The position numbers and the translations under genes are program-made. The notes under the pieces are model-generated. The model was not told where the DNA came from and made no database searches. It was given only the letters and a program-made list of their open reading frames with translations. From the NCBI GenBank assembly GCA_030390025.1, contig CM059431.1:96784001-96848000 (forward strand): DNA of 64,000 nt, written 5' to 3'. The DNA is from Squalus acanthias. Taxonomy: Eukaryota. Below, piece after piece: positions 22,241-57,230 of the stretch (positions are counted from its first letter, which is position 1; each line of letters opens with the position of its first letter).

Positions 22241-22363
22241 GGTAGAATGGGATCTATAAATAGCTGCATTCACGGGTAGAATGGGATCTATAAATAGCTG
22301 CATTCACGGGTAGAATGGGATCTATAAATAGCTGCATTCACGGGTAGAATGGGATCTATAAAT
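22241..22363. repeat. 34-bp tandem repeat, ~3.6 copies
   Basis: ggtagaatgggatctataaatagctgcattcacg. Confidence 0.95.
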
Positions 22364-22369
22364 AAAGAG

Positions 22370-23777: not shown

Positions 23778-24232
23778 GAGGACGGGTGCCGAGGCACAGG
23801 AAGTCGCTCCGAGGCCTGGCGCCGAGGGACAGGAAGTCGCTCCGAGGCACAGGAAGTCGCTCCGAGGACGGGCGCTGAGGCACAGGAAGTCGCTTCAAGG
23901 GACAGGAAGTCGCTCCGCGGGCTGGTGCCGAGGGACAGGAAGTCGCTCCGAGGCCTGGTGCCGAGGGACAGGAAGTCGCTCCGAGGCACAGGAAGTCGCT
24001 CCGAGGACGGGCGCTGAGGCACAGGAAGTCGCTTCGAGGGACAGGAAGTCGCTCCGCGGGCTGGTGCTGAGGGACAGGAAGTCGCTCCGAGGACGGGCGC
24101 TGAGGCACAGGAAGTCGCTCCGCGGGCTGGTGCCGAGGGACAGGAAGTCGCTCCGAGGACGGGTGCTGAGGCACAGGAAGTCGCTCCGAGGGACAGGAAG
24201 TCGCTCCGAGGGACAGGAAGTCGCTCCGAGGG
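23778..24232. repeat. Compound minisatellite of 20- and 33-bp units, 16 copies of core acaggaagtcgct
   Basis: Direct count of the core motif. Confidence 0.95.
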
Positions 24233-34500: not shown

Positions 34501-37500
34501 ATGTTTGTAATACACCTTGTCTATTTTCACCAACACGGGTAGACAGTGATTGGGACAGAGAACGAGAAATGCCTTGTTGTATAGTGTCACCTACATGAGT
34601 GGACCGTGATTGGGACAGAGAACGATAAAGGCCATCTGCATGGGTGGACAATGATTGGGACAGAGAACGAGAAACGCCTGGTATAGTGTCATCTGCATGG
34701 GTGGACAGTGATTGGCACAGAGAACGAGAAACGCCTTGTATAGTGTCATCTGCATGGGTAGACCGTGATTGGCACAGAGAACGAGAAATATCTTGTATAG
34801 TGTCATCTGCATGGGTGGACAGTGATTGGGACAGAGAACGAGAAACACCTTGTATAGTGTCATCTGCATGGGTAGACCATGATTGGCACAGAGAACGAGA
34901 AATGTCTTGTATAGTGTCATCTGCATGGGTGGACAGTGATTGGGACAGAGAACGAGAAACGCCTTGTATAGTGTCATCTGCATGGGTAGACCGTGATTGG
35001 CACAGAGAATGAGAAACGCCATCTACATGGGTGGACAGTGATTGGGACAGAGAACGAGAAACGCCTTGTATAGTGTCATCTGCATGGGTAGATCGTGATT
35101 GGCACAGAGAACGAGAAACGCCATCTGCATGGGTAGACCGTGATTGGCACAGAGAACGATAAACACCATCTGCATGGGTAGACAGTGATTGGGACAGAGA
35201 ACGAGAAACGCCTTGTATAGTATCATCTGCATGGGTAGACCGTGATTGGCACAGAGAACGAGAAACACCATCTGCATGGGTAGAACGTGATTGGCACAGA
35301 GAACGAGAAACGCCATCTGCATGGGTAGAACGTGATTGGCACAGAGAACGAGAAACGCCATCTGCATGGGTGGACAGTGATTGGGAGAGAGAACGATAAA
35401 CACCTTGTATAGTGTCATCTGCATGGGTAGACCGTGATTGGCACAGAGAACGAGAAACACCATCTGCATGGGTGGACAGTGATTGGCACAGAGAATGAGA
35501 AACGCCTTGTATAGTGTCTGCATGGGTAGACCGTGATTGGCACAGAGATCGAGAAACGCCAAGTACAGTGTCATCTGCATGGGTGGACAGTGATTGGATG
35601 GGTAAGTTAGATACAGCTGGTGCAATACTATCAACATGAGTGGACAGTGAATTGCTGGGGGGTTTGGATACAGTTCCCACACTGCCATCTACATAAGGAA
35701 GTGATGAATAGTTGGGATAACTGGATCCACTATGTGGATAATCAGTAACATTAGAAGCTAATGAATGGGTGACAGAATCAGATACACTTTGTTTATTACT
35801 ATCAACCTGAGAAGTTGATGAATGGATTGAAAGTCCGGTTCCACCTTGTTTGTTAGCAGCAACATTGGAACACGGTGATTGGATGGAAGGATGCAACAGA
35901 TCTTGTGCCTCACCAGCAACATGCGAGAGCAATGATTGGGTGGAAGAACAACAACTATCTATCAGATTATCTTCGACATGAGTGGACAGTGATTGCATGG
36001 GTAAGTTGTATGCACCTTGTAAAACATCACCAACAAAGATGGATGGTGAATGATTGGAAAAACTGGATATATATCCTGTGTCAGCATTGGCAGGGATGAA
36101 TAGTGAATTGCTGGAAGAGTTGAATACAGTTCTTGCATTATAATAAAGATGATCAGGTGAATAAGTGGATGCATTCCATACTCCACTGTCAAAATGGGAA
36201 GAGATTGAATGTCTGGATACACGCAGGACACTTTGTATGTTATCAATACTGGATGGTGGTGACTGGGTGGAAGAATTAAATACATGTTGTACATGATCAT
36301 TAATATGAGTGGCAGATTCAGGTTCATTGTCACCAAAATTGGTGGGCAGTGATTGGAAGGAAACATGAGATACACTGCGTTTTTTGTCACCAACCTGGAT
36401 GGGCAGTGATCCGATAGAAACATGGGGTGCACCTTGTTCATTGTCACCAACATAGATGGGCAGTGATTGGTTGGAAGAATGCGGTACACCTTGTGCATTA
36501 TTTTCAACACAGGTGAATACTGATTTGGTGGTGGAATTGGATACATTTTGTATGTTATCATGAAAACGAGAGGACAGTGACTGTGTGGGAGAATAAGATA
36601 CACGTGCACTGTCATTAGCATGAGGGGACAGTGATTGAGCGGAAGATGCATGTGCTTTGTCATTAGCACGAGGGGACAGTGATTGAGCGGGAGAATAAGA
36701 TCCACGTGCTTTGTCATTAGCACGAGGAGACAGTGACTTTGCAGGAGAGTAAGATGCACGTGCTTTGACATTAGCACGAGGGGACAGTGATTGAGCGGGA
36801 GAATAAGATCCACGTGCTTTGTCATTAGCACGAGGGGACAGTGACTTTGCAGGAGAGTAAGATGCACGTGCTTTGTCATTAGCACGAGGGGACAGTGATT
36901 GAGCGGGAGAATAAGATCCACGTGCTTTGTCATTAGCACGAGGGGACAGTGACTTTGCAGGAGAGTAAGATGCACGTGCTTTGTCATTAGCATGAGGGGA
37001 CAGTGATTGAGCGGGAGAATAAGATGCACTCTCTGTGTTGTCAACACAGGTGGACAATGATTTAATGGATGAATCATTAATGCCAATAGACAGTAAATGA
37101 CATGGTGACTTACTGTTTATACTATCGTCCACATGGGAACATGGTGAAGAGATGGAGAAATTCCATACATGTCTTGTACTAACATCAATATCGGGAGATG
37201 GGGAACGGTTGGAAGGTCTGGATATTTGGTGTACACTACCATCAACAGGGGTAGATGGTGGAAGAATGGCAGAACCAGACAAATATTTGAATATACCTTG
37301 TTCCTTATCAACAGCACAGGACACTGATCTAGAGGAAGAATTAGATGTACCTTGTGCATTATGTTTAACAGGGGTGGAAGAATTAGATACACATTGTACA
37401 TCAACTACGTGGGTGCATAACGGTCGGGTGGAAGAGTTGGACGCATGCTGTGTATTATCAGCAACATGGCTATGTAGTGAATCTTTGCCATTCTCATGTG

Positions 37501-39174
37501 TCAGTGCTTCACTATAACAATAAGGATATATAAACTGTGCATTTGGCCTTGATCCAAGAGAATAGTGGCGTGATTTTGGTGGGCTAATGGATCTTGCTCT
37601 GCTAGCTCTCGTATGTCTATCTGCTACCTGGTTAACTGATAGTGATTCCGTGTAAGAGCAGGATCTTTTGTGAGGGACATGGAAGATTCGGGTTATCGGT
37701 ATTTTTATTGGCTTTTGATGAGCATCATTCCTTATCGATGAGGTGTTATCTTGTACCTGGTGTCCTTCAGAATTGGTATATGGCGATTGGACAGGAGAAT
37801 AACACACAGCTCGTTCATTATCATCAGCTGAAGTGTCTGGTGGTCTGATGGAATAACTTGATACTCCTTGTATATTACCAGGAACATGTGGGGATGATAG
37901 CTGGATGGATGAACCCAATGTAATTGGCTTATTGCTGTCCTGTTTGGATGATTCACTGAAACAGTAAGTGTATTCAATGGATTCTTTGAGACTTAATCTA
38001 GGTGAATAGGGACATGATTTTTGTTGGCCAACAGATTTTGTTTTTCTCTCTCTCACGTGTCTATCTGTTCTGTGATTAACTGACACGGATCTAATGTGAG
38101 AGGAGGATCTTCTATCAGTAGGATGGAAGATTCGAGTTGTAGGTATTTTTATAGGCTTTTGACAGTCACCCCAGTTGTGTGAGTGAACGTCATCATCTTG
38201 TGCTCTGTATTGCTCCACACAGGAAGGCCTAGCTATGGCTTGAACTTTATCAGTCGCATGGGGGGATAATGATTGAATGAAATGCCCAGATGTGTGTGTT
38301 ATATCATCATCAGTGTGGAATGGCAGTGTTTGGATAGAAGATGTATATATACTTGGCACATTGTCATCATGGAAGAACACTGAGTCAGTGGAATAATTAA
38401 ATACATCTTGTTCATTATTGCCAACTTGTGTGGATGGGGATTGTATGGGAGAACTGGAGGTACCTTGTATATTGGCATCAGCATGTGGGTACAGTGTTTG
38501 AATTGGTGAAGTAGGGACCCCATCCGCATTGATATCAGTATGCCTGGGTGGCGATGAGATGGATCCATGTACGCAATCATCAAGTTGATTAAATGTCAAT
38601 CTGATTGATGAATTGGCTATAGCTTGTACGTCATCGGCTTGGGTGGGTGGTAACTGGTTGTGATGAGGCGAATGGGAATTGATGCGAATCATTATGGGAG
38701 AGGATGGTTCTGTTGTAACTCTTCCTTTTTTTGACCGTTGGACAGAATATCCACTTGCATACAAGCTGCCAATTTGTTCTGTGTATTCCCTCATGTTATC
38801 TGCTTTTGAAGGCATACGTCCTGCATTATCAGAATCTTTTCTAGAACCTGTTGGATATGGTGAAAAGTGGTGTTTGGGCATAGATTGTTCCAGCATATCT
38901 GAATGATTCCAAAACGATTGTTCTGGGAGCGGGGGTGCAATAGGTAAGTCACCATACGATTTGCTTCTGTCTTTCCTGCTTTCAGTAAAAATGGACTCAT
39001 TGCTCCCGTGATGTTTGCCTCTCTTGTGAATTTTGCGCTGTGGGAATTTCAAAAAAGTCACTTTGTGATTCCTTTTCATTTTCTTATTATGTCCATCAAT
39101 TGCACCCTTCCTGTGTTCAACTGGAATGTGCTGAAATCCCCCAAGAAGTGGCCTATAATTTGAGACATAAACAC
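31571..39174 (-). CDS. Giant terminal coding exon (~2,530 aa) of an unrecognised Ser/His/Thr-rich repetitive protein
   Basis: Stop-free frame from 39241 to the TAG at 31571; internal repeats vary only by multiples of 3 nt; phase-compatible acceptor cataaag|GT at 39174 (alternative attccag|TT ~48 nt further in); exact 5' boundary uncertain. Confidence 0.88.
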
Positions 39175-39479
39175 CTTTATGTTGACATTTATACAAATAT
39201 TGAAAGATACAGGCAACACTACAGTGGAACTGCCACTTAGATTATATGCAATGGATGAATTCTAATAAAATATTCCCATTGTGAGTATATTTATTATTTT
39301 AATATTAGTGTTTCTTTCAGTTCCACAGTGTACAAGCTGGAAATATCCAGCCGGGAACCCTATATTCCTAGATCTGCCCACCAAGACTTAGCTCAATTCC
39401 TTCCACTTGACATGTTCTATTACTGACTCCACACAACCCATTTAATATTGAGGAAAAATTCTCCCTGCACTGTACTCAC

Positions 39480-39678
39480 AGTAAATCATTCGGAAGGTAA
39501 CCAGCGTACTGTTCAGCTGGTCTCCATCTCTGTAAAAGTCCAATATGTAGTATTCATCTAACATTATTACACATCTCTGCCCAAATTCTTTCCTTGGCAT
39601 GAATTTTCTATTTGCTTCAGAAAACATAATGAACCCGAGTTTAACATTGTAAAATGTGAGAAATGCCCATTTTTCATC
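39480..39678 (-). CDS. Putative internal exon of the giant-exon gene (199 bp, phase 0 to 1)
   Basis: ttcattattag|GAT...TAC T|gtgagt; DEKWAFLTFYNVKLGFIMFSEANRKFMPRKEFGQRCVIMLDEYYILDFYRDGDQLNSTLVTFRMIY. Confidence 0.7.
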
Positions 39679-39969
39679 CTAATAATGAACCATGAACAAT
39701 ATGGGAATGTGAGGCTTTCTGAGAATGCTTAGTTAAGCAATAAAGGAGAACTAGTAAACAATCACATTGGAACTTTGCCAAGCAGCTAGGAGCCACTTAA
39801 CATCTGATACAAGAGGTAAGTGGTATAAATATTGTTAATCCAGCTGTGGACTACACAATATTTGTGGAAAAATCCTCATTTACCCATGAGAGGCTGCACA
39901 AACTATTATGGATAAACATGAGCAGATTTTTACATGGGGAGATTAGCTCCAAATACGCAAAGGAGGCAC

Positions 39970-40036
39970 CAAAGTGCATCCACACCATTCACAGCCTGAG
40001 GAGGCCCTGGCTGGATGTCTGGTAAAAGTTGCACAA
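39970..40036 (-). CDS. Putative internal exon (67 bp, phase 2 to 0)
   Basis: Good acceptor ctttgtgtatttccttaag|T; weak donor TTG|gtgcct; CATFTRHPARASSGCEWCGCTL bridges the phases of the flanking exons. Confidence 0.45.
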
Positions 40037-42196
40037 CTTAAGGAAATACACAAAGTCAAGGTAAGAGTTGTGAAGTAACAGCACAGGACACACAGACATA
40101 AAGGAAAGTAGCATGAAGTGCTACTCAGTTGCTAGCTCAGTTGGTAGCACTCTCAGCCTAAGTCAGAAGCTTGTGAATTCAAGTCTCACTCCACAATACA
40201 TCAGCAGACTTCTCTATCGCCATAACAGGGGCTATTGTTAGTGAACAACAACTTGCATTTATATAGAAGAGCGTCCCACGGTGCTTCACAGAAGTGTAAT
40301 CAGATGAAAATGGACACCAAGACAAAGAAGCAGATATTAGGAGGGGTGGCTAAAAGCATGGTCAAAGAAATAAGTTTTAAGGGGAGTCTTAAGGAGGAGA
40401 GGTTTGGGGAGGACATTCCAGAGAGTGGGGCCTCGATAGCTGAAGGCACAGCTGCCATTGGTGGGCAAAGTGAATGGGGGATGCACAACAGGCTAGAGTC
40501 AGTGTATATGGGCATGTTGAGGTAGCATATCAGACAAATTGCAGATTAAATGCACACTGTGATAGGTAGCAGCGATTCTACAGGCCCTCCACTGTCCACA
40601 GTCCTGATGCTTTACAGCTTCGTCCTGAATAAATCACTAACTTTTTTTCACATTGTCCCTCCCTGTTGAGGGACTTCAGTGATGTGGAGAAGCTGGGATT
40701 GCTCTCCTTAGAGCAGAGAAGGTTAAGGGAAGATTTAATAGACGTATTCAAAATGATGAAGGGTTTCGATAGAGTAAATAAGAAACTGTTTCCAGTAGCT
40801 GGAGAGTCAGTAACCAGAGGTTACAAATTTAAGGTCATTGATTCGATGTTATGTATGAGTTTCGCCTTTTATCATAGGATTTAGGCAGTGTGATGAGTAT
40901 TTCTTTCTTCAGTGGCATGTATAAATAATTTGCAATGCACTAATTGTAGAAGAGCAAACTACAGAGGGATGAAGGAGGACTTTGTGTGGAAAGATTAACT
41001 GGTAAACAGTGGAGCAACACTTGGGATTATTTAAGTGTTGGATGGGTCAGCACAGTCTAGGGCTGCATCTGGGGACAGTCCAGGGGCTGCGACTAGGAAC
41101 AGTCATGGGGCAGTCTAGGACTGTTGTTTCAGATTACTGGAAATAAAGGACAAAAACAATGCAGGTGACAAATCTAAAGCCAGTGACACAACAGTCACAA
41201 GAAACAAAGAGAAAGGTAAAGAGAGCTGAGAGGGAATATGGGGGGTGAAAGTTTGCAGCCAACGTAAAGGGAAACAGCAAAGATCTTTATGAACACTCGA
41301 GGAAAAAGATTATTAAAGATGTGTGAAGCCACTCAACTGAGATGATTATGGGAGAAAAGAAATGAATACTTTGCTTCAGAACTTAGAGCACAGAAAGTCT
41401 TTAGGCTTGTGGATAAAGGCAGTCAATAGAAATTTAATATGGAGAAATGTGAGGTGATACATTTTGGGTGGAATAATGAGTGGAAATGTACACTAAGTGG
41501 TGCAACTTTAAAAGAGGAACAGGGAGAACTAGGGGTTCAGATACAGAAATCACTACAACTGGCAGGACACATTAATAAAGTTGTTTTTAAAAAAGAGCAT
41601 ACGGCAATCTGAGGTTTTATAAGAGCTAAATAGTAATGCTAAATCTATACAAATCATTGTTTAAGCTCCAGTTAGCATATTTCTAGAGGAATAGAATTAA
41701 AAAGGAATAGAACTAAAAAGTAGAGAAGTTCTGTTAAACTTGAATAGAACCTTGGTTAGACCACACTCGGAGTACTGTGAACAGTTCTGATCTCCATATT
41801 AGAAAAGGATTTAGAGGGACTAGAGAAAGTGCAAAAAAGGTATGATACCAGAACTGAGAACTTAGAACTATCAGACTTATAACTGAACGGGCTGGGGCTC
41901 TTTTCTGTAGAAAAGAGAAGGCTGAGGGGTGACCTGATAGAGATCTTTAAAATTATGAAGGGGTTCGATAGGGTAGACGTAGTGAAGATGTTTCCACTTG
42001 TGGAGGAGACCAGAACTAGGGGCCATAAATATAAGATAGTCACTAATAAATCCAATAGGCAATTCAGGAGAAACTTCTTTACCAGAGAGTGGTGAGAATG
42101 TGGAACTCGCTACCACAGGGAGTGGTTGAGGCGATTAGCAAAGATACATTTAAGGGGAAGCTAGATAAGCACATGAGGGATAAAGGAATAGAAGGA

Positions 42197-43594
42197 AACA
42201 ACAACAGAAAATGCTGGAAAAACTCAGCAGGCCAGGCAACATCCGTGGAGAGAGAAACAGAGTTAACATTTCAGGTCGAAACCCTTCGTCAGAACTGAGA
42301 AAAAAGCAGGAAATGAAACAGTTAAAAAAGCAAGGGGGAGGCTGGGGGGAGGAGTAAAAGAACAAAAGGGGTGGTCTATGGTAAGTAGAGACATTAAGAG
42401 ATGCTCAAGGCAAGACGAGATGGTAATAGGACAGGCTAAGAAACAAAAGGTGGCTAGAAGTGTGAAGTGTGAAATGCCCTCGACCGTGTCCGTTCTATCT
42501 CCCGCACTTCTGCCCTCACCCCGGCCCCTCCCTCCCGGAACCACGATAGAGTTCCCCTTGTCCTCACCTTTCACCCCACCAGCCTCCACATTCAACGGAT
42601 CATCCTCCGCCATTTCCACCACCTCCAACGTGATCCCACCACCAAACGTATCTTCCCCTCACCTCCCCTTTCAGCATTCCGTATGGACCGCTCCCTCCGA
42701 GACACCCTACTCCACTCCTCTATCACCCCCAGCACCCCTTCTCCCTTGCCTGGCACCTTCCCGTGCAAGTGCAGGAGATGCAACACTTGCCCTTATACAT
42801 TCCCCGCTTCCCACTCTCCAGGGCCCCAAACACCCCTTCCAGGTGAAACAGCGATTTACTTGTACTTCTTGCAATCTAGTATACTGTATTCGCTGCTCAC
42901 GATGTGGTCTCCTCTACATTGGGGAGACCAAACGCAGATTGGGTGACCGCTTTGCGGAACACCTCCGTTCAGTCCGTAAGGGTGACCCCGAGCTTCCGGT
43001 CGCTTGTCATTTTAATTCACCTCTCCACGCCCACTCAGACCTCACCGTCCTCAGCCTCGGCATTGTTCCACGGAAGCTCAGCGTAAGCTCGAGGAACAGC
43101 ACCTCATCTTCCGATTAAGCACTTTACAGCCTTCCAGACACAATATCGAGTTCAACAATTTCAGATCATAACCTCGGCCCCTACCACATATATATATATA
43201 TATATATATTATCCACCTTTTGGTTTGTGCCTTTTCCCTTATTTTTCTCTCTCTCCCCCCACGGCAGCTGTCTCTCATTCTGCCAGCATTTCACACTTCA
43301 CACTTCTGAGCCACCTTTTGTTTCTTAACCTGTCCTATTACCATCTCGTCTTGCCTTGAGCATCTCTTAATGTCTCTACTTACCATAGACCACCCCTTTT
43401 GTTCTTTTATTCCTCCCCCCAGCCTCCCCCTTGCTTTTTTATCTGTTTCATTTCCTGCTTTTTTCTCAGTTCTGACGAAGGGTTTCGACCTGAAACGTTA
43501 ACTCTGTTTCTCTCTCCATGGATGTTGCCTGGCCTGCTGAGTTTTTCCAGCGTTTTCTGTTGTTTCAATTTTCCAGCATCCGCAGTATTTTGCT
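42197..43594 (+). mobile_element. Penelope-like element, 5'-truncated, with ~280-bp inverted termini and GIY-YIG endonuclease remnant
   Basis: FTCTSCNLVYCIRCSRCGLLYIGETKRRLGDRFAEHLRSVR (GIY-YIG, CxxC); 42197-42477 is the reverse complement of ~43287-43566; ~14-bp TSD aaggaatagaagga / aagaaatagaagga. Confidence 0.92.
43467..43503 (+). ncRNA. Minimal type I hammerhead ribozyme motif in the PLE terminus
   Basis: agtt-CTGACGA-a-gggt-ttcg-acct-GAAACGTT-aact: intact CUGANGA and GAAA..UH core, palindromic ACGU stem III. Confidence 0.75.
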
Positions 43595-43717
43595 AAGAAA
43601 TAGAAGGATATGCTGATAGGGTGAGATGAAGTAGGGGTGGGAGGAGGCTTTTGTGGAGCATAAACACCAGCATGGACCAGTTGGGTCAAATGGCCTGTTT
43701 CTGTGCTGCAATTCTAT

Positions 43718-44473
43718 GGCCCAGAAATTCCGTTCGCAGGCCTCCCGCGGGCGGAGGGCTGCGATCTGGAAAAATCTGCACCTGGACCGGAGGGCTCCCA
43801 GGAGGCGCAGAGTTCCGTTGCTGGGCCTCTCCAAACTGCCAGTGTGCAGGGCCCACGTGATCCAAGAGGCGCAGGTAGTTCACAGCGTCCCTGGGATCAC
43901 GTGGGCCATGGGGAGCCAATCAGAGAAGGGAATCTCCCTTCATACATTTGACAGGAAGACCTGTCAAATATATGAATGGAGATCACCCCCAAAACATAGT
44001 AAAACTTTAAATAAATTAAAAAAAAAAAATCACATTTTTAAAATGACTTTAAATGACATAAATTAAGTATTTTAAACAAAAATTTTATTTTTTGAAAAAA
44101 ATAATTAAAGTTTTTAACGGGGCTAAAAATAAACTTACCTTTCTTTAAAGTATTTTTAAATGATAAATCAGTGGAAATTAAAAAAAACACTTTTTTCAAC
44201 TCTTATCCTGGTAAAAGCAGGCCTTACGCTGCTTTTCCAGGCGCAAGAATTGTAAGTGTTTTCTGCGGGCGGAGGGTCTCCCAAAAATGGAACTCTCCTC
44301 CCGCAGAGGCCCTTCTCCCGGGCAGCCGGAGGATCTGTCAAGAGCTTTCTTGACAGCTCGGAAATGCCGGTTTCCAGCGCATGCGCAGTGTATGCCTAAA
44401 ACCGGCATTTCTGATGGCCCTGTGGGTGAGTACACAGCGCGTACACACCCGTAGGGAACGGAATTTCTGCCTC
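43718..44473. mobile_element. MITE (Harbinger-like) with TIRs and 3-bp TSD
   Basis: GGCCCAGAAATTCCGTTC ... GAACGGAATTTCTGCCTC, flanked by tat/tat; GC-rich arms with an AT-rich centre. Confidence 0.78.
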
Positions 44474-45491
44474 TATGTAATTACAACCAGTCTGCCCACG
44501 CTGCACAGAAGGCTTTGGCTGGAGTTTGGATATCTGTGAGCAAGATTACTGACACCTGGAAACCTGTCACCCACAGTGACTGACTAACGATCACTAGAAT
44601 CCAACCATTCTAAATTATAATTGTTTCAGGGGAAGGGTTAAATGTGACTGTAGTGTTGCAGGGAGTGGGGTGGGGGGTTCACATGCTGTGTCAATTCTGG
44701 TACAACAATGCTGTCTAGGAACCACAGGAAATGCCATTTTGGTGACCTGTTACTTGAGGCTCTAGCAACGGGTGTGAGGGAATATCCAAGCACGAGCTAT
44801 GGAGTGGATGGGTATCTCTTCCCCCTGAAATGAAGGAGGTGCCAGGACATTGCCGAGCGAACAAACACTGTTCTGAACCCAGTGGAGTTACGGGGGATGC
44901 TGCAAGAAGTTGTCTGGCATACGAAACCTGGCCAGGTAAGTCATTTTATATTAACGTGCACCTGCCTCATGGCATGGGAAAAGGTCAACACTGACAAACA
45001 TCTCAGCCAGAAATGTTAGCCCATCTGAGTCTGAAGTGCAGTTCGCACCTGAAATGTCAACTTGTGTGCTCTCTCCCCAGATGCTGCCTGAACTGCTGAG
45101 TGTTGCTGAGAGAGCAGTGCTGGACTGGCGACAATTTATATGAATCGAAGGAAAGATACAAGGGTGAGGGGAATGAGTTGGTTGATGTGCCAAGCCCCTG
45201 GCAACCCAATTCAGAAAGCACAATGATGGAAATACCTTTTAAACATCCAATGTATCATACAGACCAGGCTCTGTCCAGACTTTCTCAGTGTCCTGTGTGC
45301 TGTCAAAGTTTCAATACCGCTTTTAATTTGATCTTTAACATATGGGAATGCCTGTTTCCTTGGGGAACACTGATCCTTCACCCTTTGTGGGGTAGAGTGA
45401 AACTGGAGAGTCTGCCCGAGCTCACGGTTGACCCAGTCAATCTCCCGAACTGCTGCCCATGGTGAGTTGGAGGATGCAGTCTATCACTCAC

Positions 45492-45608
45492 TTGTAGAAG
45501 ACTTTCTGCTGTGTATACTGCAATGGCTCCATCCTGTGTTTGGGCCCCAACTCTCCACTGTCATCTCGAAATAGCGCATGTCCAAACTTATTCTTCACCA
45601 GCAACACT
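45492..45608 (-). CDS. Putative internal exon of the giant-exon gene (117 bp, phase 2 to 2)
   Basis: ctttcactatctgattttag|A GTG...TAC AA|gtgagt; only one open frame: VLLVKNKFGHALFRDDSGELGPKHRMEPLQYTQQKVFY. Confidence 0.7.
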
Positions 45609-46294
45609 CTAAAATCAGATAGTGAAAGATGTTTTATCCAGAATAAATAATAAACGAAAAATCAAATGACCATTTACAGTCCTCACCACTTAAACTGCCC
45701 ATATTTAAATCGGGGAAAGAGCACTAACCATTTGCTGTTAGCAGTATTGTCAGTTACAGATTTGCTGCTCAGTGTGTTAAGTGCGGCGGCTGTTCCAAAC
45801 AGACACAGGTGTTGAGTGAATAGTTCGCACCGTGTTAAGGTGCAGTTCCTTGTTATAATTCTGGGTTATGGAGCCACGCGAGTTCAGCAGAAGAGAAGCT
45901 GAGCAAAGTTGACTGATCCTGTGGACAGCATCAGTACGGAAGCAAGTGAAGAGTGTGTCACATCCAATTGTCAGTATGACAATCGTACACAACACTACAT
46001 GATAACTATAGTGTTTTTGCAGCAGAGAAAAGAGAGGGCCAGAATTAGAGAGTTTGAGCAGCGCTTCCCAGTACCTGATCACTGCAGGATTCTTCTCGAA
46101 TAGTTAGCGACAATGGAGATTAATGGACTTTAAACGGAACTGTCTGAAATACTTGTTAAGGAAAAAATCCTTCCAGTCAGGGTTATAAAGAAGCAGCATA
46201 GCTTCAATAAACTGTCTAACACATGTAGTGGGCAAACCACATTAGCACCAAAGCACCCGCTGTAAGACGTGGGGACTGTACCTCATCTTACAAT

Positions 46295-46804
46295 CATAGA
46301 AATTTACAGCACAGAAGGAGGCCATTTGACCCATCGTGTCTGTGCCGGCCGAAAAAAAGCTATCCAGCCTAATCCCACTTTCCAGCTCTTGGTCCGTAGC
46401 CCTGTAGGTTACAGCACTTCAAGTGCATATCCAAGTACTTTTTAAATGTGATAAGGGTCTCTGCCTCTACCACCCTTTCAGGCAGTGAGTTCCAGACCCC
46501 CACCACCCTCTGGGTGTAAAAAGTTCTCTTCAACTCCCCTCTAATCCTTCTACCAATTACTTTAAATCTATGCCCCCTGGTTATTGACCTCTGCTAAGGG
46601 AGATAGGTCCTTCCTATCCACTCTATCTAGGCCCCTCATAATTTTATACACCTCAATTAAATCTCACCTCAGCCTCCTCTGTTCCAAAGAAAACAACCCC
46701 AGCCTATCCAATCTTTCCTCATAGCTAAAATTCCCCAGCCCAGGCAACATCCTCGTAAATCTCCTCTGTACCCTCTCTAGTGCAATCACATCCTTCCTGT
46801 AATG
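46295..46804 (-). mobile_element. CR1 LINE 3' fragment (same subfamily as 8935-9945)
   Basis: HYRKDVIALERVQRRFTRMLPGLGNFSYEERL; near-identical 3' UTR. Confidence 0.93.
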
Positions 46805-46989
46805 AATCTCACTGGTAAAGTCATAACTTAAAGTATGGAATTGATTTACGTGTGGAAAAAATAATGAACAAGATGCTACACAGTAAAATAGAACATCATC
46901 TGATACAATGGAGCAAAATGTTAAAATCATCATTTTTTTAATGAATTGAAAGTAAGCAATGGCAATATGTATTTTAATTTGTACACAAC

Positions 46990-47085
46990 CTGGCGTTATG
47001 GAAGAATTTCAGTCCCATAGCTCTGTCCTTATTTTTATATTCCGATTTTCTATTCATATGTCCACAGTTATAATGGGAACTGTCT
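46990..47085 (-). CDS. Putative internal exon (96 bp, phase 2 to 2)
   Basis: gtttacag|A GAC...GCC AG|gttgtg; DSSHYNCGHMNRKSEYKNKDRAMGLKFFHNA; phases fit both neighbours. Confidence 0.62.
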
Positions 47086-47170
47086 CTGTAAACTCGTCAA
47101 GCTGTAATTGCAGCTTCTCACCAGCGGTGACCCTGTAGCACCCCCAGGAGAGGGGCAGAGTAATTACAGT

Positions 47171-47952
47171 GGGCTGGATTTTGTCTTGGGGTCGGGTTGG
47201 GGTTGTGTTAGCCACATTTCGTGTTGCCCCCCCGACTCCAGATTAATGTAGATGAATGATGCAATTTTCACTTAATTGGGTAATTGAGTTCCAGCATGTG
47301 GGAACCCATGAACCAATTAGTGGTTTCAGTCTGAAAGTCGCCTCTGATGATGTCATCATTGCAGGTCAGAGACTGCCTGCCTGGTCTCAGAAACTGCCTG
47401 GCTTTTGGTGTGGACCTGGATGCAAAATGAGCAGGAGAGAGAGAGAGACAGAGATAGAGAAAGAGAGAGAGAGAGAGAGAATGAATGAATTTTTTTTCCA
47501 TCCAGGGCCTCTCACAGCAAGGCCAGGCAGTCTCTGAAGACAATGCAGCAGCATCAGAGGCGACTTTCAGACCTAATACTACTACCTTCATCACAATACT
47601 ACTACCCTTCATCACATCTCCGTTGTAATAGTGGGCCTACAGCTGATAGTCAGCTATCCACTTGTGCTCCCGCCAGGTTTCACTGGAGTGTTTCACATCA
47701 GGCGTACTTCACGTCGGAAAAGGGTTAAACTAGCTAAAACGTTTCAAAATGGCATTACAGAGCCAATTTAGGCCTTGTTAAGGGCTTTAATGGCCTCTCC
47801 CGCCTCTTGGAGGCGGGACGGAGTCGGGAACTCCGCGACCGATTTTGTCAAAATTGCGTGAAGGCGGGATGGAGTCGGGACCCCCGACCCCGCAACTTTA
47901 ACCCCCCACACGCCTCCAAACCCGACTCCACAGGTCATTGAAAATCCAGCCC
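47171..47952. mobile_element. MITE (Harbinger-like) with TIRs and 3-bp TSD
   Basis: GGGCTGGATTTT ... AAAATCCAGCCC, flanked by agt/agt; contains (GA)n. Confidence 0.85.
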
Positions 47953-48099
47953 AGTGTGTTTACACAGGCAGCTTCCACTATATAGACCTAGGAATCACTG
48001 ATGTAAAGTGGTGACAGGAATTGCCCATAGCTATATTAAAAAATCATGTTATTTATATAGATAATAATGGAAAATGTAAAAATTATATGATATGAAGAG

Positions 48100-48530
48100 A
48101 AGTTTTCTCTAGGAAAGAGAAGGCTAAACGATAACCTGATAGAGCTCTTTAAGATTATGAAAGGGTTTGATAGGGTAAACATAGAGAAGATGTTATCACT
48201 TGTGTGGGAGACCAAAACTAGGGGCCATAAATATAAGATAGTCACTAATAAATCCAATAGAGAATTCAGGAGAAACTTCTTTACCCAGAGAGTAGTTAGA
48301 ATGTGGAACTCACTACTACAGGGAGTGGTTGAGGCGAATAGTATAGACACATTTAAGTGGATGCTAGATAAGCACATGAGGGAGAAAGGAATAGAAAGAT
48401 ATACTGATAGGGTGGAATAGAAAGATATACTGATAGGGTGAAATAAAGATGGGTGGGAGGAGGCTGGTGTGGAACATAAACACTGGCATGGAGCAGTTGT
48501 GCCGAATGGCCTTTTACTGTGCTGTAAATA
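48100..48530 (+). mobile_element. CR1 LINE 3' fragment
   Basis: ORF 48157-48420 TRGHKYKI...RRNFFTQRVVRMWNSL. Confidence 0.92.
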
Positions 48531-48679
48531 TATATAAATTATCTGTGAGAATTCAAATATTAAAAAATGGGGAAACGCATTACAGTGTTTGAAAGTGGTG
48601 AAAAAAGTCTACATAAAGGTCAGCAAGCATTAGAGACGAATTAGCTCTGGTGATCTGACCTTTGGCACTGATTGAGGTG

Positions 48680-49131
48680 GGTATTAGTTTGGCTCCTTCC
48701 TGGCTGCCACAGGGATATCAGTAACATCAGTCAATCTGCAGTCCATGCTTGCATTAAGCAGGTGACTGACTGTTTGTTAAAGCAAACACTTTCATCACTT
48801 TCCCCATGGACTTCCAGAAACAGCAGGATAGGGCTCTGGGATTCACACAGATTGAAGGGTTCCCCCAAGTCCAGGGCATCAGTGACTGCACCCACTTCAC
48901 CCTGCGGGCTCCTTCAGACACCACTGCCTTCATGAATCGCAAGGGCTTCCACTCCATTAATGTGAAGCTGGTGTGAGAGCACCAGCAGTGCATCAGGCAG
49001 GTCTGTGCCCACTTTCCTGGCAGCTGCCATGATGCTTTTATACTGCGCCAATCCTCTATCGCCCCAGTCTTTGTCCCTGCACAGTGAGAGGCTGGCTACT
49101 TGGGACATGGGCTATCACCTGTACACTTGGC
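48680..49131 (+). mobile_element. Harbinger/PIF transposase (HARBI1-like DDE) relic
   Basis: Across frameshifts: ISQSAVHACIKQVT...GFPQVQGISDCTH...NRKGFHSINV...FPGSCHDAFIL...GWLLGxxGY. Confidence 0.88.
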
Positions 49132-51013
49132 GGTTTGCACAGAGCGGGATTAAATGGAGTGGACTTGAACAGAGTGTTTTATTTGGGAATTTGGAAAGAG
49201 TGGGAATTCGGAGAAGAGAGGGAAGGAGTTGTTGCTTTTTGCCTACAATACTTGTAGTGCTTTGTGATACAGGTAGATATTTAATTTCAGTACCCTTAAC
49301 TTAATCTAGATCAAATAAGTAGTCAAGAAACTACACTGTAAACTTAAGTTACCTAAATACAAATTTAATTAATCATATAGGGATGGCAGTGCAGGTGGTG
49401 TGCCGTAACTGCAGCATGTGGGAGTTTGTGGAGAGCATTGTGATCCTGGACAATCATGTTTCTAGTAAGTGCCTGCATCTTGAGGAACTTCAGCTCAGAG
49501 TTTTTGAGCTGGAGTTTGAGGTTCAGACATTGCGGGGCATCAGGGAGGGGGAGAGTTACCTGGACACTTTGATCCAGGAGGCAGTCACACCTCTTAGGTT
49601 AGATAGTGGTACAGGTCTGGTTAGTGGTCAGGGACAGGAGGGTGTGACTGCAACTCAGGCAGGTAAGGGGACCCTAGGTGCAGTGCTGGAGGAGCATCAG
49701 CCTTTGCCCTTGTCCAACAGGTATGAAGTTCTTGCTGCCTGTGTGGATAAGGGAAAAGCCTGCAGGATGGATGAGCAAGCTGACCATGGTGCAGGAGGCC
49801 ATTCAAGTGGAGGGAGTGAAAGGGAATGTAGTTGTGGTAGGGGACAGTATAGCCAGGGGGATAGATACTGTTCTCTGCAGCCGTGACCGAGAGTTCCAAA
49901 GGTTGTGTTGCCTGCCCGGTGCCAGGGTTAAAGACATCTCCTCGCGGCTGGAGGAGAACTTGGAGTGGGAGGGGGAGGATCCAGTTGTCGTGGTCCATGT
50001 AGGAACCAACAACATAGATAGAACTAGGAATGAGGTTCTGCTGAGGGAGTTTGAGGAGCTAGGATCCAAATTAAAAAGCAGAACCTCAAAGGTAATAATC
50101 TCCAGATTGTTACCTGAGCCACGCGCAAATTGGCATAAGGACAAACAGATTCTAGGTTTAAATGCATGGCTGAAAGAGTGGTGTGGGAGGAAGGGGTTTC
50201 AGTTCATGGGGCACTGGCACCAGTACTGGGGAAAGAGGGAGCTGTTCCGTTGGGACGGGCTCCACTTAAACCGGGCTGGGACCAGTGTCCTGGCAAACCG
50301 AATAACTAGGGCAGTAGACAGGGCTTTAAACTAATGAAGGGGGGGTGGGAGGATTCAGGAAAGAGTGAATTTAAAAGCAGCGAGAGAAATGTCAAGGCTC
50401 TAGAGCAGAGTAGACTTTTGGGTAAAAATAAGCAGAGTGGGTCAGGAAGGGACAGAGAGAGTAACAAAGGTAATAAGGCATCAGTGACTAGGGTGACATC
50501 AGGGAAAAATAGAAATAAGTCAAAGCTAAATGCACTATATCTGAATGCGTGAAGCATTGACAACAAAATAGATGAATTAATAGCGCAGATAGAAATTAAC
50601 AGGTTTGATCTAATAGCCATAACACACATGTGGTTGAAAAGTGGCCATGGCTGGGAACTAAATATTCCAGGATACTTAACGTTTAGAAGAGATAGGCAAA
50701 ATGGAAAAGGAGGAGGGGTAGCCCTGATAATAAAGGATGGGATGAAGACAGTAGAGAGAAAGGATCTTAGCTCTGAAAATCAAGAAGTAGAATCAGTTTG
50801 GGTAGAGCTAAGAAACAGCAAGGGGCAGAAAACATTGGTGGGAGTTGTTTATAGGCCTCCAAACAGTAGTTGTAATGTAGGGCAGAGTATAAATCAGGAA
50901 ATTAGAGGTGCACGTAACAAGGGTAATACAGTGATCATGGGGGACTTTAATTTACATATAGACTGGGCAAACCAAATTTGCAGTAATAGTGTGGAGGACA
51001 AATTCATGGAATG

Positions 51014-51240
51014 TGACATGAATCTGTCATTCATGAAAGAAAGACTTATGAAATAATACTGAGTGGCCTGCGGGTGGCGATGTCCAGGGAGAGTATAAAT
51101 ACTCGGGCACGGGCCCAGCTTGCGCAGGACATTCTTAACCGGAACTAGTGAAGGACACAACTAGACCTCCATGTTGTAAAACAGTTGATTAAAGCTTTGT
51201 TTAACGCTTAGACCAAGTGCCTAGTAGTTTTCTTACATCA
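51014..51240 (+). mobile_element. Solo LTR (227 bp) inserted in CR1 ORF2
   Basis: TG...CA termini, 5-bp TSD GAATG (51009-13, 51241-45), TATAAATA and ATTAAA inside; removal restores ...KFMEC.QDSFLDQYV. Confidence 0.85.
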
Positions 51241-52570
51241 GAATGTATGCAAGATAGTTTTCTAGATCAGTATGTTGAAGAACCAACTGGACTATTTTAA
51301 ATATAGTATTGTGCAATGAGAAAGGGTTAATTAATAACCTTGTAGTAAAGGGACTTTTAGGGACGAGTGACCACAATATGATAGAATTTTATATTGAGTT
51401 TGAAAGTGATTTAGTTAAATCCGAAACTAGGGTCTTAAATTTAAACAAAGTAAACTACATAGGTATGAGGGGCGAGTTGGCTACAGTAGATTGGGAAACT
51501 ACATTAAAAGGTATGACGGTAGACAAGCAATGGCTAGCATTTAAAGAATGAATACATAATTTACAACAAATATACATTCCTTTAAGGCACAAAAACCCCA
51601 CAGGAAAAGTGGTCCAACCGTGGCTAACAAGAGAAGTTAAAGATAGTATTAGATCAAAGGAAGAGGCTTCCACTGCTGCCAAAAAGAGTAGTAAGCCTGA
51701 GGATTTTAGAATTCAGCAAAGGAGGACCCAGAAATTGATAAAGAAAGGGAAAATAGAATATGAGAGTAAACTAGCAAGAGACATAAAAACACACTGTAAA
51801 AGCTTCTATAGGAATGTAAAAAGGCAAAGATTAGCGAAAGTAAATGTGGGTCCTTTACAGACTGAGACAGGAGAAATTATCATGGGGAATAAGGAAATGG
51901 CAGAGAAATTAAACAAATACTTTGTGTCCGTCTTCACGAAAAAGACGCAAAAAACTTCCCAGAAATAGTGGAGAACCAAAGCTCCAGCGAGAATGAGGAA
52001 CTGAAAGAAATTAGTATTAGTAAAAAAAAGTACTGGAGAAATTAATGGGACTGAAATCCGAGAAATCCCCTGGACCTGATGGCCTACATCCTAGGGTTTT
52101 GAAAGAGGTGGCTATAAAGATAGTGGATGCAATGGATGTCAGTTTTCAGTGCTTGGGCCTCAGCTATTCACAATCTACATCATGATTTGGATGAGGGGAC
52201 CAAATCTAATATATCCAAGTTTGCTGATGATACAAAGCTATGTGAGAATATAAGTTGTGAGGAGGATGCAAAGAGGATTCAAGGGTATATAGACAGGCTA
52301 CGTGAGTGGGCAAGAACATGGCAAATGGAATATAATGTGGAGAAATGTGAGGTTATCCACTTTGGTCGGAAAAATAGAAAAGCAGAGTATTTTTTAAATG
52401 GTGAGAGTTTGGGAAATATTGGTGTTCAGAGGGACCTGGGTGTCCTTGTACACGAATCACTGAAAGTTAACATGCAGGTACAGCAAGCAATTAGGAAAGC
52501 AAATGGTATGTTGGCCTTCATTACAAGAGGATTTGAGTACAAGAGTAAAGACATCTTATTGCAATTATAG

Positions 52571-54930
52571 AACAATATGTCATGGAACCAACCAGGGAAC
52601 AGGCTATTTTAGATCTTGTATTGTGTTATGAGACAGGGTTAATTAGCAATCTCATAGTAAAGGATCCTCTGGGGCAGAGTGATCATAATATGATAGAATT
52701 TTACATTAATTTTGAGAGTGACTCGCCTAAGTGCGAAACTAGAGTCTTAAGCTTAAATAAAGCCAATTACATAGGTATGAGGGGCGAGTTGACTAAGGTA
52801 AATTGGAAAAATAGATTAAAATATATGGCGGTAGATAAGCAGTGGCTAGCATTTAAAGAAATATTTCATAATTCTCAACAAAAATACATTCCATTGAGAA
52901 ACAAAAACTCCATGGGAAAAGTGATCCAACTGTGGCTAACTAAAGAAGTTAAGGATAGCATTAGATTGAAAGAAGAAGCTGAAATGTTGGAAAGAATAAT
53001 AGTAAGCCTGAGGATTGGGAGAGTTTCAGAAACCAGCAAAGGTTGACCAAAAAATTGATAAAAAGGGAAAAAATAGAATATGAGAGAAAACTAGCAAGAA
53101 ATATAAAAGCAGATTGTAAGAGTTTCTACAAGTATGTAAAAAGGAAAAGAATGGCAAAAGTAAACATTGGTCCCTTAGAGGCTAAGACAGGAGAAATTAT
53201 TATGGGGAATAAGGAAATGGCAGAAACGTTAAACAAATATTTTGTATCTGTCATCACAGTAGAAGACACAAAAACAAACCAAAAATGGTAGGGAACCAAG
53301 GGTCTAATGAGGGTGAGGAACTTAACGTAATTAATATAAGGAGAGAAAAAGTACTAGAGAAATTAATGGGACTAAAAGCCAACAAATCCCCTGGACCTGA
53401 CGGCCTACATCCTAGGGTTCTAAAAGAGGTGGCTGAAGAGATAGTGGATGCATTGGTTTTGATCTTCCAAAATTCCCTTGGTTCTGGAATGGTCCCTGCG
53501 GATTGGAAATGTAACACCGCTATTCAAGAAAGGAGGAAGACAAAACACAGTGAACTACAGGACAGTCATCGGGAAAATGCTGGAATCCATTGTTAAGGAA
53601 GTGGTATCAAGTCACTTAAAAAATCATAATATGATTAGGCAGAGTCAACATGGTTTTATGAAAGGGAAATCGTGTTTTACAAATTTATTAGAGTTTTTTG
53701 AGGATGTAACTAGCAGGGTAGATAAAGGGGAACCAGTGGATGTAGTATATTTGAATTTCCAAAAGGCATTTGATAAGGTGCCACATAAAAGGTTATTACA
53801 CAAGATTAGGGCTCATGGGGTTGGGGGTAATATAGTAGCATGGATAGAGGACTGGTTAACGGACAGAAAACAGAGAGTAGGGATAAATGGATCTTTTTCA
53901 TGTTGGCAGGCTGTAACTAGTGGGTGCCGCAAGGATCAGTGTTGGGGCCTCAGCTATTTACAATCTATATTAATGACCTAGATGTAGGGACCGAGTGTAA
54001 TGTATCCAAGTTTGCTGATGATACAAAGCTAGGTGGGACAGTAAGCTGTGAGGAGAACACAAAGAGTCTGCAAAGGGATATAGATAGACTAAGTGAGTGT
54101 GCAGTAAGGTGGCAGATGGAGTATAATGTAGGGAAATGTGAGGTTATTCACTTTGGTAGGAAGAATAGAAAAACAGAATATTTTTTAAATGGTGAGTAAC
54201 TTTCAAATGTTGGTGTTCAGAGAGATTTGGGTGTCCTCGTGCAAGAAACACAGAAAGCTAGCATGCAGGTACAGCAAGCAATAAGGAAGGCAAATGGCAT
54301 GTTGGCCTTTATTGCAAGGGGGTTGGAGTATAAGAGTAAGGAAGTCTTGCTACAATTGTACAGGGCCTTGGTGAGACCACACCTGGAGTACTGTGCACAG
54401 TTTTGGTCTCCTTATCTAAGGATATACTTGCCTTGGAGGCGGTGCAACGAAGGTTCACTAGATTGATTCCTGGGATGAGAGGGCTGTCCTATGATGAGAG
54501 ATTGTGTAGAATGGGCCTATACTCTCCGGAGTTCAGAAGAATGAGAGGTGATCTCATTGACACATATAAGATTCTGAAGGGGATTGACAGGGTAGATGTT
54601 GAGAGGTTGTTTCCCCTGGCTGGAGTGTCTAGAACTAGGGGGCATAGTCTCAGGATAAGGGGTCGGCCATTTAAGACTGAGATGAGGAGGAATTTCTTCA
54701 CTCAGAGGGTTGTGAATCTTTGGAATTCTCTGCCCCAGAGGGCTGTGAATGCTGAGTCTTTGAGTATATTCAACGCTGAGATAGATTTTTGGACTCATGG
54801 GGAATCAAGGGATATGGAGATCGGGCGGTAAAGTGGAGTTGAGGTCAATGATCAGCCATGATCTTATTGAATGGCGGAGCAGGCTCGAGGGGCCGTATGG
54901 CCTACTCCTGCTCTTACCTCTTATGTTCTT
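52571..54930 (+). mobile_element. 5'-truncated CR1 LINE 'B' nested inside LINE A
   Basis: Restarts at endonuclease motif EPTREQAILDL right after ...ILLQL of element A, and ends in its own 3' tail before A resumes. Confidence 0.9.
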
Positions 54931-56221
54931 ATATAGGGCCCTGGTGAGACCACACCTGGAGTATTGTGTACAGTTTTGGTCTCCTTACCTAAGGAAGGAT
55001 ATACTTGACATAGAGGGAGTGCAACAAAGATTCACCAGACTGGTTCCTGAGATGGGGGGATTGTCCTATGAGAAAAGATTGAGTAGACTAGGCCTATATT
55101 CTCTAGAGTTTAGAAGAATGAGAGGTGATCTCATTGAAACATACAAAATTCTTACAGAGCTTGACAGGGTAAATGCAGGGAGGATGTTTCCCCTGGCTGG
55201 GGAGTCTAGAACCAGGGGTCTCAGTCTCAGAATAAGGGGTCAGCCATTTAGGATTAAGATGAGGAGAAATTTCTTCACTCAGAGGGTGGTGAATCTTTGG
55301 AATTCTCTACCCCAGAGGGTTGTAGAGGCTCAGTCATTGAGTATATTCAAGACAGAAATCGATAGATTTTTGAATATTAAGGGAATCAAGGGATATGGGG
55401 ATAGTTCAGGAAAGTGGAGATGAGGTAGAAGATCAGCCATGATCTTATTGAATGGCGGAGCATGCTCGAAGGGCCAAATAGCCTACTCCTACTCCTATTT
55501 CTTATGTTCTTATGTGACCCCTCACAGGAACCTACACTCAGTGGCTGGACAACGTGATCCATGGGTTGACTGGAACCTTGTTGATCAGACCGTTGTGACT
55601 TGAGTTGGTAATTGGTTGAGAAGTAGAAGATAGATAGTAGGGATACAGGGAATGTTCTTTGATTGGTGGGATGTGACAACTGGCGTTCCCCAGTGACCTG
55701 TACTTGAGCCTCAACTTTTCACACTGTATATCAATGACTTGGATGAAGGAATGAAGAGTTGTAAATCCAAGTTTGAAGGTGACACAGTAAGTTGTGTAGA
55801 TGGGAGCAGGAAGTAGGAGCAAAGAACTGGGAGTTTATTGGCACGCACCATTTGTTATTTTAATAGGGAACAAGGTAGATACCGAGGGGACGTTACATAC
55901 AACACTTGGGCAAGGGGAGATCCCAGGTGTAGCACAGGCCTGGCCTTATTGGTCCAGTGCAGGTGGCTGTACAATGGTTCAAGTTGCTCTCCTAGCCCTA
56001 GCTCCACAGGGGGCGCTGGCAGACAGCATGCTGGGCTGATGCGGGGGTTCAGCCCCAGGGGAAGTAGGGGTTCACAGCCCTGGGAGGGTGGGGTTGTGTT
56101 GGTGTCTGTGTGTGTTGGTGTATGAATGGATGTGAAAAGCATAGAGATTTAATGGCAGATTTTTCATTAAAAATGAAATTAAATCTGAGATAAATAAAGC
56201 AGAGGATCTGCCTGAACTCAC

Positions 56222-56363
56222 TGTTGGTTATCCATGATGGGGCAAGATGTAGAAAGAGCCGTGACTGAAACTACTGAAAATACGAGAAATGTGATCACGA
56301 AGCCAAGGGCCAGAAGGTGATTCAGAGGATAATTCTTTTCTGGTTCCCATCCATCATTAGCCT
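56222..56363 (-). CDS. Putative exon encoding a transmembrane/signal-anchor segment (142 bp, phase 1 to 2)
   Basis: tttttttttataaaacag|AG...CA|gtgagt; ANDGWEPEKNYPLNHLLALGFVITFLVFSVVSVTALSTSCPIMDNQ. Confidence 0.72.
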
Positions 56364-56542
56364 CTGTTTTATAAAAAAAAATTCTAAATGAGTGAGATAT
56401 ATTAGAGTAAGGTCAAAATTCGATCCTCTATACATATTTATATTTATTTGTGATTAACTTTGTTAAACTTTGAATAAACTAATCATTAAATACTAGACAT
56501 TCAACAAGTAGTTGATTGCAATTCATTAAATAACAGTCGCAC

Positions 56543-56617
56543 CTTCCCCTTCTTTTAACAGTCCATTTCGTGCATCCCACTTCTGGTTTGGCTCATTTTG
56601 AGGTGTACTGGTTTGTC
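56543..56617 (-). CDS. Putative exon (75 bp, phase 1 to 1)
   Basis: ttctctttatggtttgtgttacag|GA...GAA G|gtgcga; only one open frame QTSTPQNEPNQKWDARNGLLKEGE. Confidence 0.68.
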
Positions 56618-57230
56618 CTGTAACACAAACCATAAAGAGAACATCCCATTAATGATGCGAAAAGGCTTGTTGCACAAATGAAGCAAATTCACTGCATAAA
56701 ATCGGTTTTGTTGCATCAAACGCAAACATCGACTGATTGTTATGGTTGGGCTGTCTCTGTAATCCCGTTATTAATGCTTGCAGCAAAATACAGTTTCTGT
56801 AAATAGAGCTGCGATATGAAACTTGCCACTTCAGGCTTTGAAGTGTGTGACAGGATTAACAATTAAACTTGTTACCCGAATATTTAGCACCCCAAGTTGC
56901 TTGGGCTATTCAATGTCCTCTCCAATACGTCAGCCTGTATCACTCAAGCTAAAACTATAAATTACATTTATTTAATAGAAAATTAGGATTACACAGAAAC
57001 AAAAAAAATATGCCAGATATCAATCTTGGAAATATTTACAACCCAAGATTGAATCAATTCACACGAGTTTAAAGTATTTTCTTCAGGACTTCAGTTTTAC
57101 ATCATTCATTAAACTTCAAGGCTTGTGGGAGACACCAGCTTCCTTCCTCTGGTGGATATAATGTTTGTACCTGGGTGAGGCAACGTTTCAGTCTTCCAGC
57201 TCAGATGTCTTGAACACAACCAAAACAGAA

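Follow-up and report, generated by a model that had tools for sequence, protein, structure and literature searches.

The window analysed here is a 64,000-nucleotide (nt) stretch of the Squalus acanthias genome (NCBI GenBank assembly GCA_030390025.1, contig CM059431.1, forward-strand positions 96,784,001 to 96,848,000), and all coordinates below count from its first letter. Its minus strand, on which all the exons discussed here lie, carries a stop-to-stop open reading frame (ORF) of 2,556 codons at 31571-39241. Judged by homology, this giant ORF is not a gene of one exon: small exons precede it, and it forms the final coding exon of a gene that is spliced. On sequence comparison, the gene is the orthologue of an already-predicted, uncharacterised gene that has so far been seen only in cartilaginous fishes. 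A first-pass annotation had placed six hidden exons (exons 1 to 6 below, numbered 5' to 3') upstream of the ORF and had given the product a membrane anchor.

The assignment is carried by orthologues. A query made of the giant exon's first 497 residues (residues 24-520) matched four of 2,154 candidates, at E-values of 1e-84 to 1e-138: Scyliorhinus torazame XP_072332086.1 (56% identity, E 1e-138), Chiloscyllium punctatum XP_072434218.1 (50%), Leucoraja erinacea XP_055492584.1/XP_055492583.1 (46%) and Narcine bancroftii XP_069746477-9.1 (44%). Three further isoforms were added through a cluster look-up, and a profile of the N-terminal block added a 307-amino-acid (aa) protein of Pristis pectinata (LOC127575665). 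The set thus comprises eight NCBI-predicted sequences from five species, all of which were read. The similarity to the Squalus protein is significant and colinear over the full length, with both termini included. Across the giant exon the orthologues of all five species align at 46-59% identity, and this exon can be called the last coding one because the alignment remains colinear to the very C-terminus.

Six of the eight sequences (Scyliorhinus, Chiloscyllium, Leucoraja X2, Narcine X1 and X3, and Pristis) begin with MD[ND][QR]Q, and the other two begin with different first exons (MVDNTS.. and MYR). In several species two or three transcripts encode one identical protein with the MDxxQ start. 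Both shark orthologues pass from MDNQQ directly into giant-exon sequence and skip a 117-nt exon, whereas Narcine X1/X3, Leucoraja X2 and Pristis have MD[DN][QR]Q, then a segment of 38-42 aa, then K-P-L and giant-exon sequence. The 117-nt exon is therefore shared by the Squalus window with batoids and sawfish and is missing from the two shark models. Squalus and its orthologues have the same exon logic, namely an MDxxQ mini-exon, an optional exon of ~38 aa and a giant last exon entered at K/Q-P-L, and they also have in common a basic KVTF block, an LPIAPPLP motif and a serine-rich C-terminal tail ending in YDD. The Squalus model is longer than its orthologues (2,570 aa versus 1,824-2,378) because of species-specific tandem arrays. 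Relatives outside the cartilaginous fishes were found neither by a homologue search (one of 39 candidates) nor by a profile search (three of 7,527, all chondrichthyan), and since both were limited to proteins of 229/246-2,000 aa with shared 5-residue words, absence elsewhere is weakly supported. The N-terminal block, taken as query for the ESM Atlas, scored 0.78 at best, under the lead threshold. NCBI calls the orthologues "uncharacterized protein" or, on batoids, "serine-rich adhesin for platelets-like".

These comparisons point to a coding model of three parts. Translation would start at ATG 56235 in a 14-nt coding segment (56222-56235) that encodes M-D-N-Q-Q, with the last codon split, and is followed by the donor GTGAGT at 56221. 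It would continue through the 117-nt exon at 45492-45608 (38 codons plus split codons) and then through the giant exon, entered at acceptor 39152 and ended by the stop at 31571. The start codon, placed by the orthologue N-termini, lies in the context CCCATCATGG, with A at -3 and G at +4, which is a strong initiation context by the Kozak rule, and its Met is conserved in all six species. When batoid N-termini were used as tblastn queries, the 38-aa segment was placed on 45607-45494 (E 3e-7 to 1.9e-4) and the match to the giant exon began at about 39160-39139. Rays, skate and sawfish have all kept the 117-nt exon, with an alignment that is ungapped for Narcine and Leucoraja and has one 4-residue gap for Pristis. 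The end of the intron before it (45609-45628, minus strand) reads in frame as ..S-D-F-R, to be compared with ..Y-D-F-R in Pristis, whose version of the exon is four residues longer, and ..Y-N-F-R in Leucoraja X1. This likeness upstream of 45608 implies that the acceptor of the exon has shifted, or is alternatively used, between lineages.

The giant coding exon (31571-39152) comprises 7,579 coding nt and a TAG at 31573-31571. Its acceptor, tatag followed by G at 39152, is entered with two bases carried over from the preceding exon, and exons 2, 3 and 4 each leave such a two-base carry-over. The split codons and the junction residues K/Q-P-L of the orthologues are compatible with acceptor 39152 only. 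On a simple weight matrix for donors and acceptors, which works with approximate frequencies and gives all splice scores below, this acceptor reaches 3.3 bits, against -1.5 bits for the junction at 39174, 22 nt upstream, by which the first-pass annotation had entered the ORF; the orthologues thus redirect that junction to 39152. Joined together, 56235-56222, 45608-45492 and 39152-31571 encode 2,570 aa, uninterrupted by any stop and colinear with the proteins of rays, or 2,531 aa if the 117-nt exon is left out. An isoform of the latter kind, like the two shark models, may be produced as well.

Within the six-exon proposal, therefore, what the orthologues bear out at the protein level is the last 14 nt of exon 2 (56222-56363) and the whole of exon 4 (45492-45608), while exons 3, 5 and 6 are absent from all eight orthologue sequences. 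The ~170-aa, possibly globular region that had been expected behind the membrane anchor is likewise in none of the eight sequences from the five species. The three-part coding model leaves exons 3, 5 and 6, together with acceptor 39174, as AG..GT open segments that would have arisen by chance in a repeat-filled intron, and exon 1 and the transmembrane (TM)-like stretch encoded in exon 2 would belong to a 5' leader.

Three tandem arrays were located in the giant exon by Tandem Repeats Finder: one at 34537-35597 with units of 45/57/102 nt, translated as serine-rich repeats of 15-19 aa, one at 36566-37029 (54 nt x 8.7) and one at 32340-32648 (57 nt x 5.4). A block of ~75 aa, duplicated internally at 37400-38100 of the same strand, is among the best-conserved parts in all orthologues; it reads K-P-I-K-I-P-x-T-R-I-F-H .. 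R-x-R-S-I-S-P .. Y-P-Y-C-[FY]-S-E, or K-I-P-I-T-R-I-F-H..R-S-I-S-P. A promoter and start codon of the giant ORF's own were considered and rejected: the first in-frame Met falls after a conserved GFQH..KK block, and the orthologues have upstream exons.

How could six exons be joined in frame if three of them are unsupported? The observations behind the chain were accurate. All six segments are flanked by AG and GT, are open and continue in phase into the giant ORF without a stop before its end, and extracting them reproduces the peptides that had been quoted. The islands free of transposable elements (TEs) around them are also real, as contigs of relatives diverged by ~3% cover exactly those islands and the remainder stands at repeat-level depth. 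The acceptor and donor scores, in bits, are 6.6 and 7.8 for exon 1 (56617-56543), 3.3 and 6.8 for exon 2 (56363-56222), 2.3 and 1.3 for exon 3 (47085-46990), 4.4 and 9.1 for exon 4 (45608-45492), 3.0 and 1.9 for exon 5 (40036-39970), and 4.2 and 6.6 for exon 6 (39678-39480). Chance was counted over the 17,047 nt that separate exon 2 from the giant exon, for open AG..GT segments of 50-250 nt and with the weakest links of the chain as thresholds. There are 330 such candidates on the minus strand against 462 on the plus strand, which served as control, and in-frame chains of four inserted exons number ~2.98 million on the minus strand against 14.6 million. With good thresholds (acceptor at least 4 and donor at least 6 bits), 29 candidates are left on the minus strand, exons 4 and 6 among them, against 51 on the control strand. 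The six-exon chain exceeds nothing that is expected by chance, and joining in frame is by itself no evidence.

The complete proposal, in which all six exons are spliced serially into 39174 to give a protein of ~2,750 aa with a TM helix, the globular region and a giant tail, is accordingly extremely improbable. The frame and the lack of internal stops speak for it, as do the decent splice scores of exons 1, 2, 4 and 6. However, the chain as given has no in-frame ATG ahead of the MDNQQ at the 3' end of exon 2, it depends on weak sites (acceptor 39174 at -1.5, the exon 3 donor at 1.3 and the exon 5 donor at 1.9 bits), its exon 6 has no homologue, and equally valid chains arise by chance in millions. 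Contrary to it, the orthologues splice exon 4 or exon 2 directly to 39152. Assembled contigs do not bear on the matter. Run X1, whose contigs are identical to the window and whose label "RNA?" is a guess, provides three contigs of ~190 nt at a depth of ~2.5, two of which (39214-39411 and 40082-40269) fall in what all models call intron and are uninformative on splicing. Among the 15 contig joints listed out of 4,385, none matches a predicted junction and all lie in repeats, which is evidence neither way.

Given the abundance of chance candidates, exons 3, 5 and 6 are taken to be chance segments. Exon 3 (46990-47085) is weak at both ends and exon 5 (39970-40036) has the poor donor already mentioned. 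Exon 6 (39480-39678) is the longest of the three, with 66 codons, and has decent splice sites, but its frame fits only if exon 5, with its weak donor, and the poor acceptor 39174 are used as well. A phmmer search with exon 6 against 1.84 billion representative proteins returned no match at E<=0.001, and neither Pfam nor the ESM Atlas gave a usable match. When metagenomes were scanned for the exon 5/6 region of another elasmobranch, 554 patterns matched and none was confirmed. One could still imagine that exon 6, alone or with exon 5, is a genuine minor alternative exon, a "poison" or non-coding cassette; the poison-type role is suggested because without exon 5 it shifts the frame and brings in a premature stop. 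Its acceptor has a pyrimidine tract, its donor is GTGAGT, and it lies in unique sequence only ~330 nt upstream of the giant exon. Against this, the intron offers 29 candidates of its grade and the control strand 51, and a cassette of this sequence has no homologue, so that I regard the idea as quite improbable.

The TM-like stretch is a different matter. It consists of 21 codons (56254-56316) with a mean Kyte-Doolittle (KD) hydropathy of 2.50 over 19 residues (KD19), is in frame with the conserved ATG and ends six codons before it. It is encoded in the remainder of exon 2 (56236-56363), which is open in frame, is covered by no orthologue protein, has an unverified 5' boundary, and carries an out-of-frame pair of upstream ATGs (uATGs) and a short upstream ORF. 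Extending exon 2 without splicing reaches no in-frame ATG. Exon 1 (56543-56617), also unverified, has good splice scores at both ends, and an in-frame ATG lies at 56633-56631, 17 nt upstream of its AG, usable only if exon 1 starts upstream of that AG. The membrane anchor is accordingly neither demonstrated nor disproved: the hydrophobic stretch exists and its occurrence is statistically unusual, yet its position is 5' of the annotated ATG, its translation would require an upstream ATG exon, and the orthologues lack any TM or other hydrophobic segment (their KD19 maximum is 1.15 over the eight sequences). The segment 56236-56363 is probably a 5' leader and possibly an N-terminal extension.

Taken as a whole, the explanation I favour, with modest confidence, is the three-part coding model with a soluble, disordered, serine-rich product and the TM-like stretch in the leader. 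I count the exon structure (as far as homology establishes it), the absence of a TM segment from the orthologues and the composition as demonstrated. Several points weigh against this explanation. The start codons of the orthologues are pipeline predictions. The two nearest models, those of sharks, skip the 117-nt exon, and its inclusion here is deduced from intact splice sites and frame. The 42 open codons of exon 2 before the ATG encode a textbook TM helix, a coincidence of p ~4e-4 if they are leader. Stop-free segments of such hydrophobicity number six in the six frames of the window; 46 of its 127,720 codon positions have 46 open upstream codons with such a segment, and nine of 20,000 composition-preserving shuffles of the 126 nt leave the frame open with KD>=2.45. 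Both remaining frames of the stretch are interrupted by stops. Among strong donors upstream, the nearest, that of exon 1 (56543, 7.8 bits), is in phase and has the in-frame ATG at 56633 behind it, and a leader here would contain several out-of-frame uATGs.

Such observations would fit a long, membrane-anchored isoform that starts at an upstream ATG (e.g. 56633) and reads through exon 1 and the entire exon 2. It would add ~73 residues, made up of an acidic ectodomain of ~46 aa and one TM helix, before continuing into exon 4 and the giant exon at 39152, without exons 3, 5 and 6. The flank before the helix is acidic and that after it strongly basic, in keeping with the positive-inside rule; with the basic block cytoplasmic, the product would be a signal-anchor protein with a giant cytoplasmic tail, and MDNQQ would be an internal or alternative start. 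On the other hand, none of the eight orthologue sequences from five species has an N-terminal extension or a TM, and in several of these species the two or three transcripts all give the same MDxxQ-start protein. The Met is conserved in six species in a strong initiation context, eight of 50 upstream donors would likewise supply an in-phase ATG by chance, and a scan of this kind selects for such coincidences. I therefore consider the long isoform possible but rather unlikely. The same tentative standing belongs to its corollary, that MDxxQ is an internal or alternative start, that the five annotated orthologues are N-terminally truncated or represent the soluble isoform only, and that the serine-rich tail of ~2,500 aa, KVTF included, is tethered to a membrane on its cytoplasmic side.

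As to the product of the three-part coding model, the protein is 21% serine and is built from degenerate serine-rich units of 15-19 aa, some of them recently amplified as the tandem arrays of 54, 45/57/102 and 57 nt. An hmmscan of each exon and the giant exon against 24,736 Pfam models at E<=1 returned a single match, to DUF3106, below the cut-off (22.9 versus 24.3 bits), and a Pfam scan of two orthologues returned nothing at E<=0.001. The conserved islands are an N-terminal basic block with [KR]-V-T-F and LPIAPPLP, the twice-repeated block, and an acidic serine-rich C-terminal tail. In the first of these, K-V-T-F is encoded at 39053-39064, with V31, T32 and F33 invariant in five of five aligned sequences and KVTF present in Pristis too, and L-P-I-A-P-P-L-P at 38924-38947, with L69-P76 invariant in the five aligned sequences and LPTAPPLP in Pristis.

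PMC4794898 gives a short RVxF consensus for docking to PP1, [RK]x0-1[VI]{P}[FW], which is found by chance in ~25% of proteins, and an extended one, [KR][KR][ACHKMNQRSTV]V[CHKNQRST][FW]. KVTF/RVTF, invariant in the window and the five orthologue species, matches the short consensus. The extended form is matched neither by N-H-K-V-T-F of the window nor by the NHRVTF or NRKVTF of the others, and this counts against a docking role. The product would be a soluble, intrinsically disordered and probably heavily phosphorylated scaffold, in which KVTF may dock PP1. The likeliest reading of its sequence is that of a disordered scaffold with an invariant K/R-V-T-F, soluble or tethered depending on the TM question.

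Repeats occur both in the intron and in the flanks of the gene. On the plus strand, a long interspersed nuclear element (LINE) in the intron has GDSL-esterase, AP-endonuclease and reverse-transcriptase ORFs at 49.7-54.0 kb. The intron also has a GIY-YIG match at 42267-43118 that lies below the Pfam cut-off. The relatives at ~3% divergence are represented by DNA contigs of runs X2 and X4, which cover the non-repeat islands 37100-40340, 44472-46312, 46956-47166 and 55784-56900. Contigs of these two runs bridge 40694-41072 and 47167-47951 directly, so that both segments were either inserted in the lineage of the window or deleted from the relatives. The minus strand carries another LINE fragment at 27112-29206, again with ORFs for AP-endonuclease and reverse transcriptase, ~2.4 kb downstream of the stop codon of the giant exon. 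Further away, 11893-24232 is a 12-kb G-rich minisatellite block (33 nt x 48, 32 nt x 23, 29 nt x 20, 27-29 nt x 31 and others), and it is because of these minisatellites that ORFs are open there in all six frames. A Pfam match to RHS_repeat on 11876-13564 was rejected as an artefact of the translated 33-nt repeat. The assembly has a gap of 405 N at 14909-15313. On the other side, ~5.3 kb upstream of exon 1, a proline-rich open frame of 161 codons (61950-62435, minus strand) sits in a patch of GC 0.60 and has no Pfam match; it may represent low-complexity DNA or belong to a neighbouring gene as an exon.

The serine-rich gene is, in sum, an ordinary one that had been predicted before. The first-pass annotation was right that small exons are hidden upstream and right on two of them, and wrong or unsupported on three others, on the acceptor by which the giant exon is entered and on the globular region; its membrane anchor is unproven and is kept alive by one statistically odd feature. 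The practical result is a corrected model for an unannotated locus, in which the start codon, a small conserved exon and the correct acceptor of the giant exon are placed. The analysis also illustrates that, in TE-rich introns, a chain of AG/GT segments picked out by eye for compatible phases counts for nothing unless homology or RNA supports it. What emerges is a fast-evolving giant protein, presumably disordered, so far found only in cartilaginous fishes. If the TM stretch before the start codon were translated, the five annotated species would each call for an N-terminal extension of the gene model, and the scaffold would be tethered to a membrane instead of soluble.

How does this gene compare with known systems? 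The batoid name "serine-rich adhesin for platelets-like" reflects composition, not homology. SraP-type adhesins have a signal peptide, a binding region and cell-wall anchor domains. Bacterial SraP (serine-rich adhesin for platelets) shares only a serine-rich, repetitive composition with the Squalus protein, whose gene is spliced and eukaryotic, has orthologues only in cartilaginous fishes and encodes no Pfam domain at cut-off. SPEM1-3, SPATA31 and CCDC168, which the first-pass annotation had named for their layout while seeing no sequence similarity, are closer in architecture: small 5' exons are followed by one giant exon with a long low-complexity tail, and an N-terminal TM would be added to the likeness only if the long isoform exists. 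Pfam holds models for the SPEM, SPATA31 and CCDC168 families and none was matched. The differences are that no similarity in sequence or Pfam family links these genes to the Squalus protein, whose relatives were found only in cartilaginous fishes, and that a TM is not part of the annotated orthologue proteins. Finally, apart from the stricter pattern, which is absent here, the likeness to PP1 interactors of the RVxF type lies in an invariant [KR]-V-T-F set in a basic, presumably disordered block.

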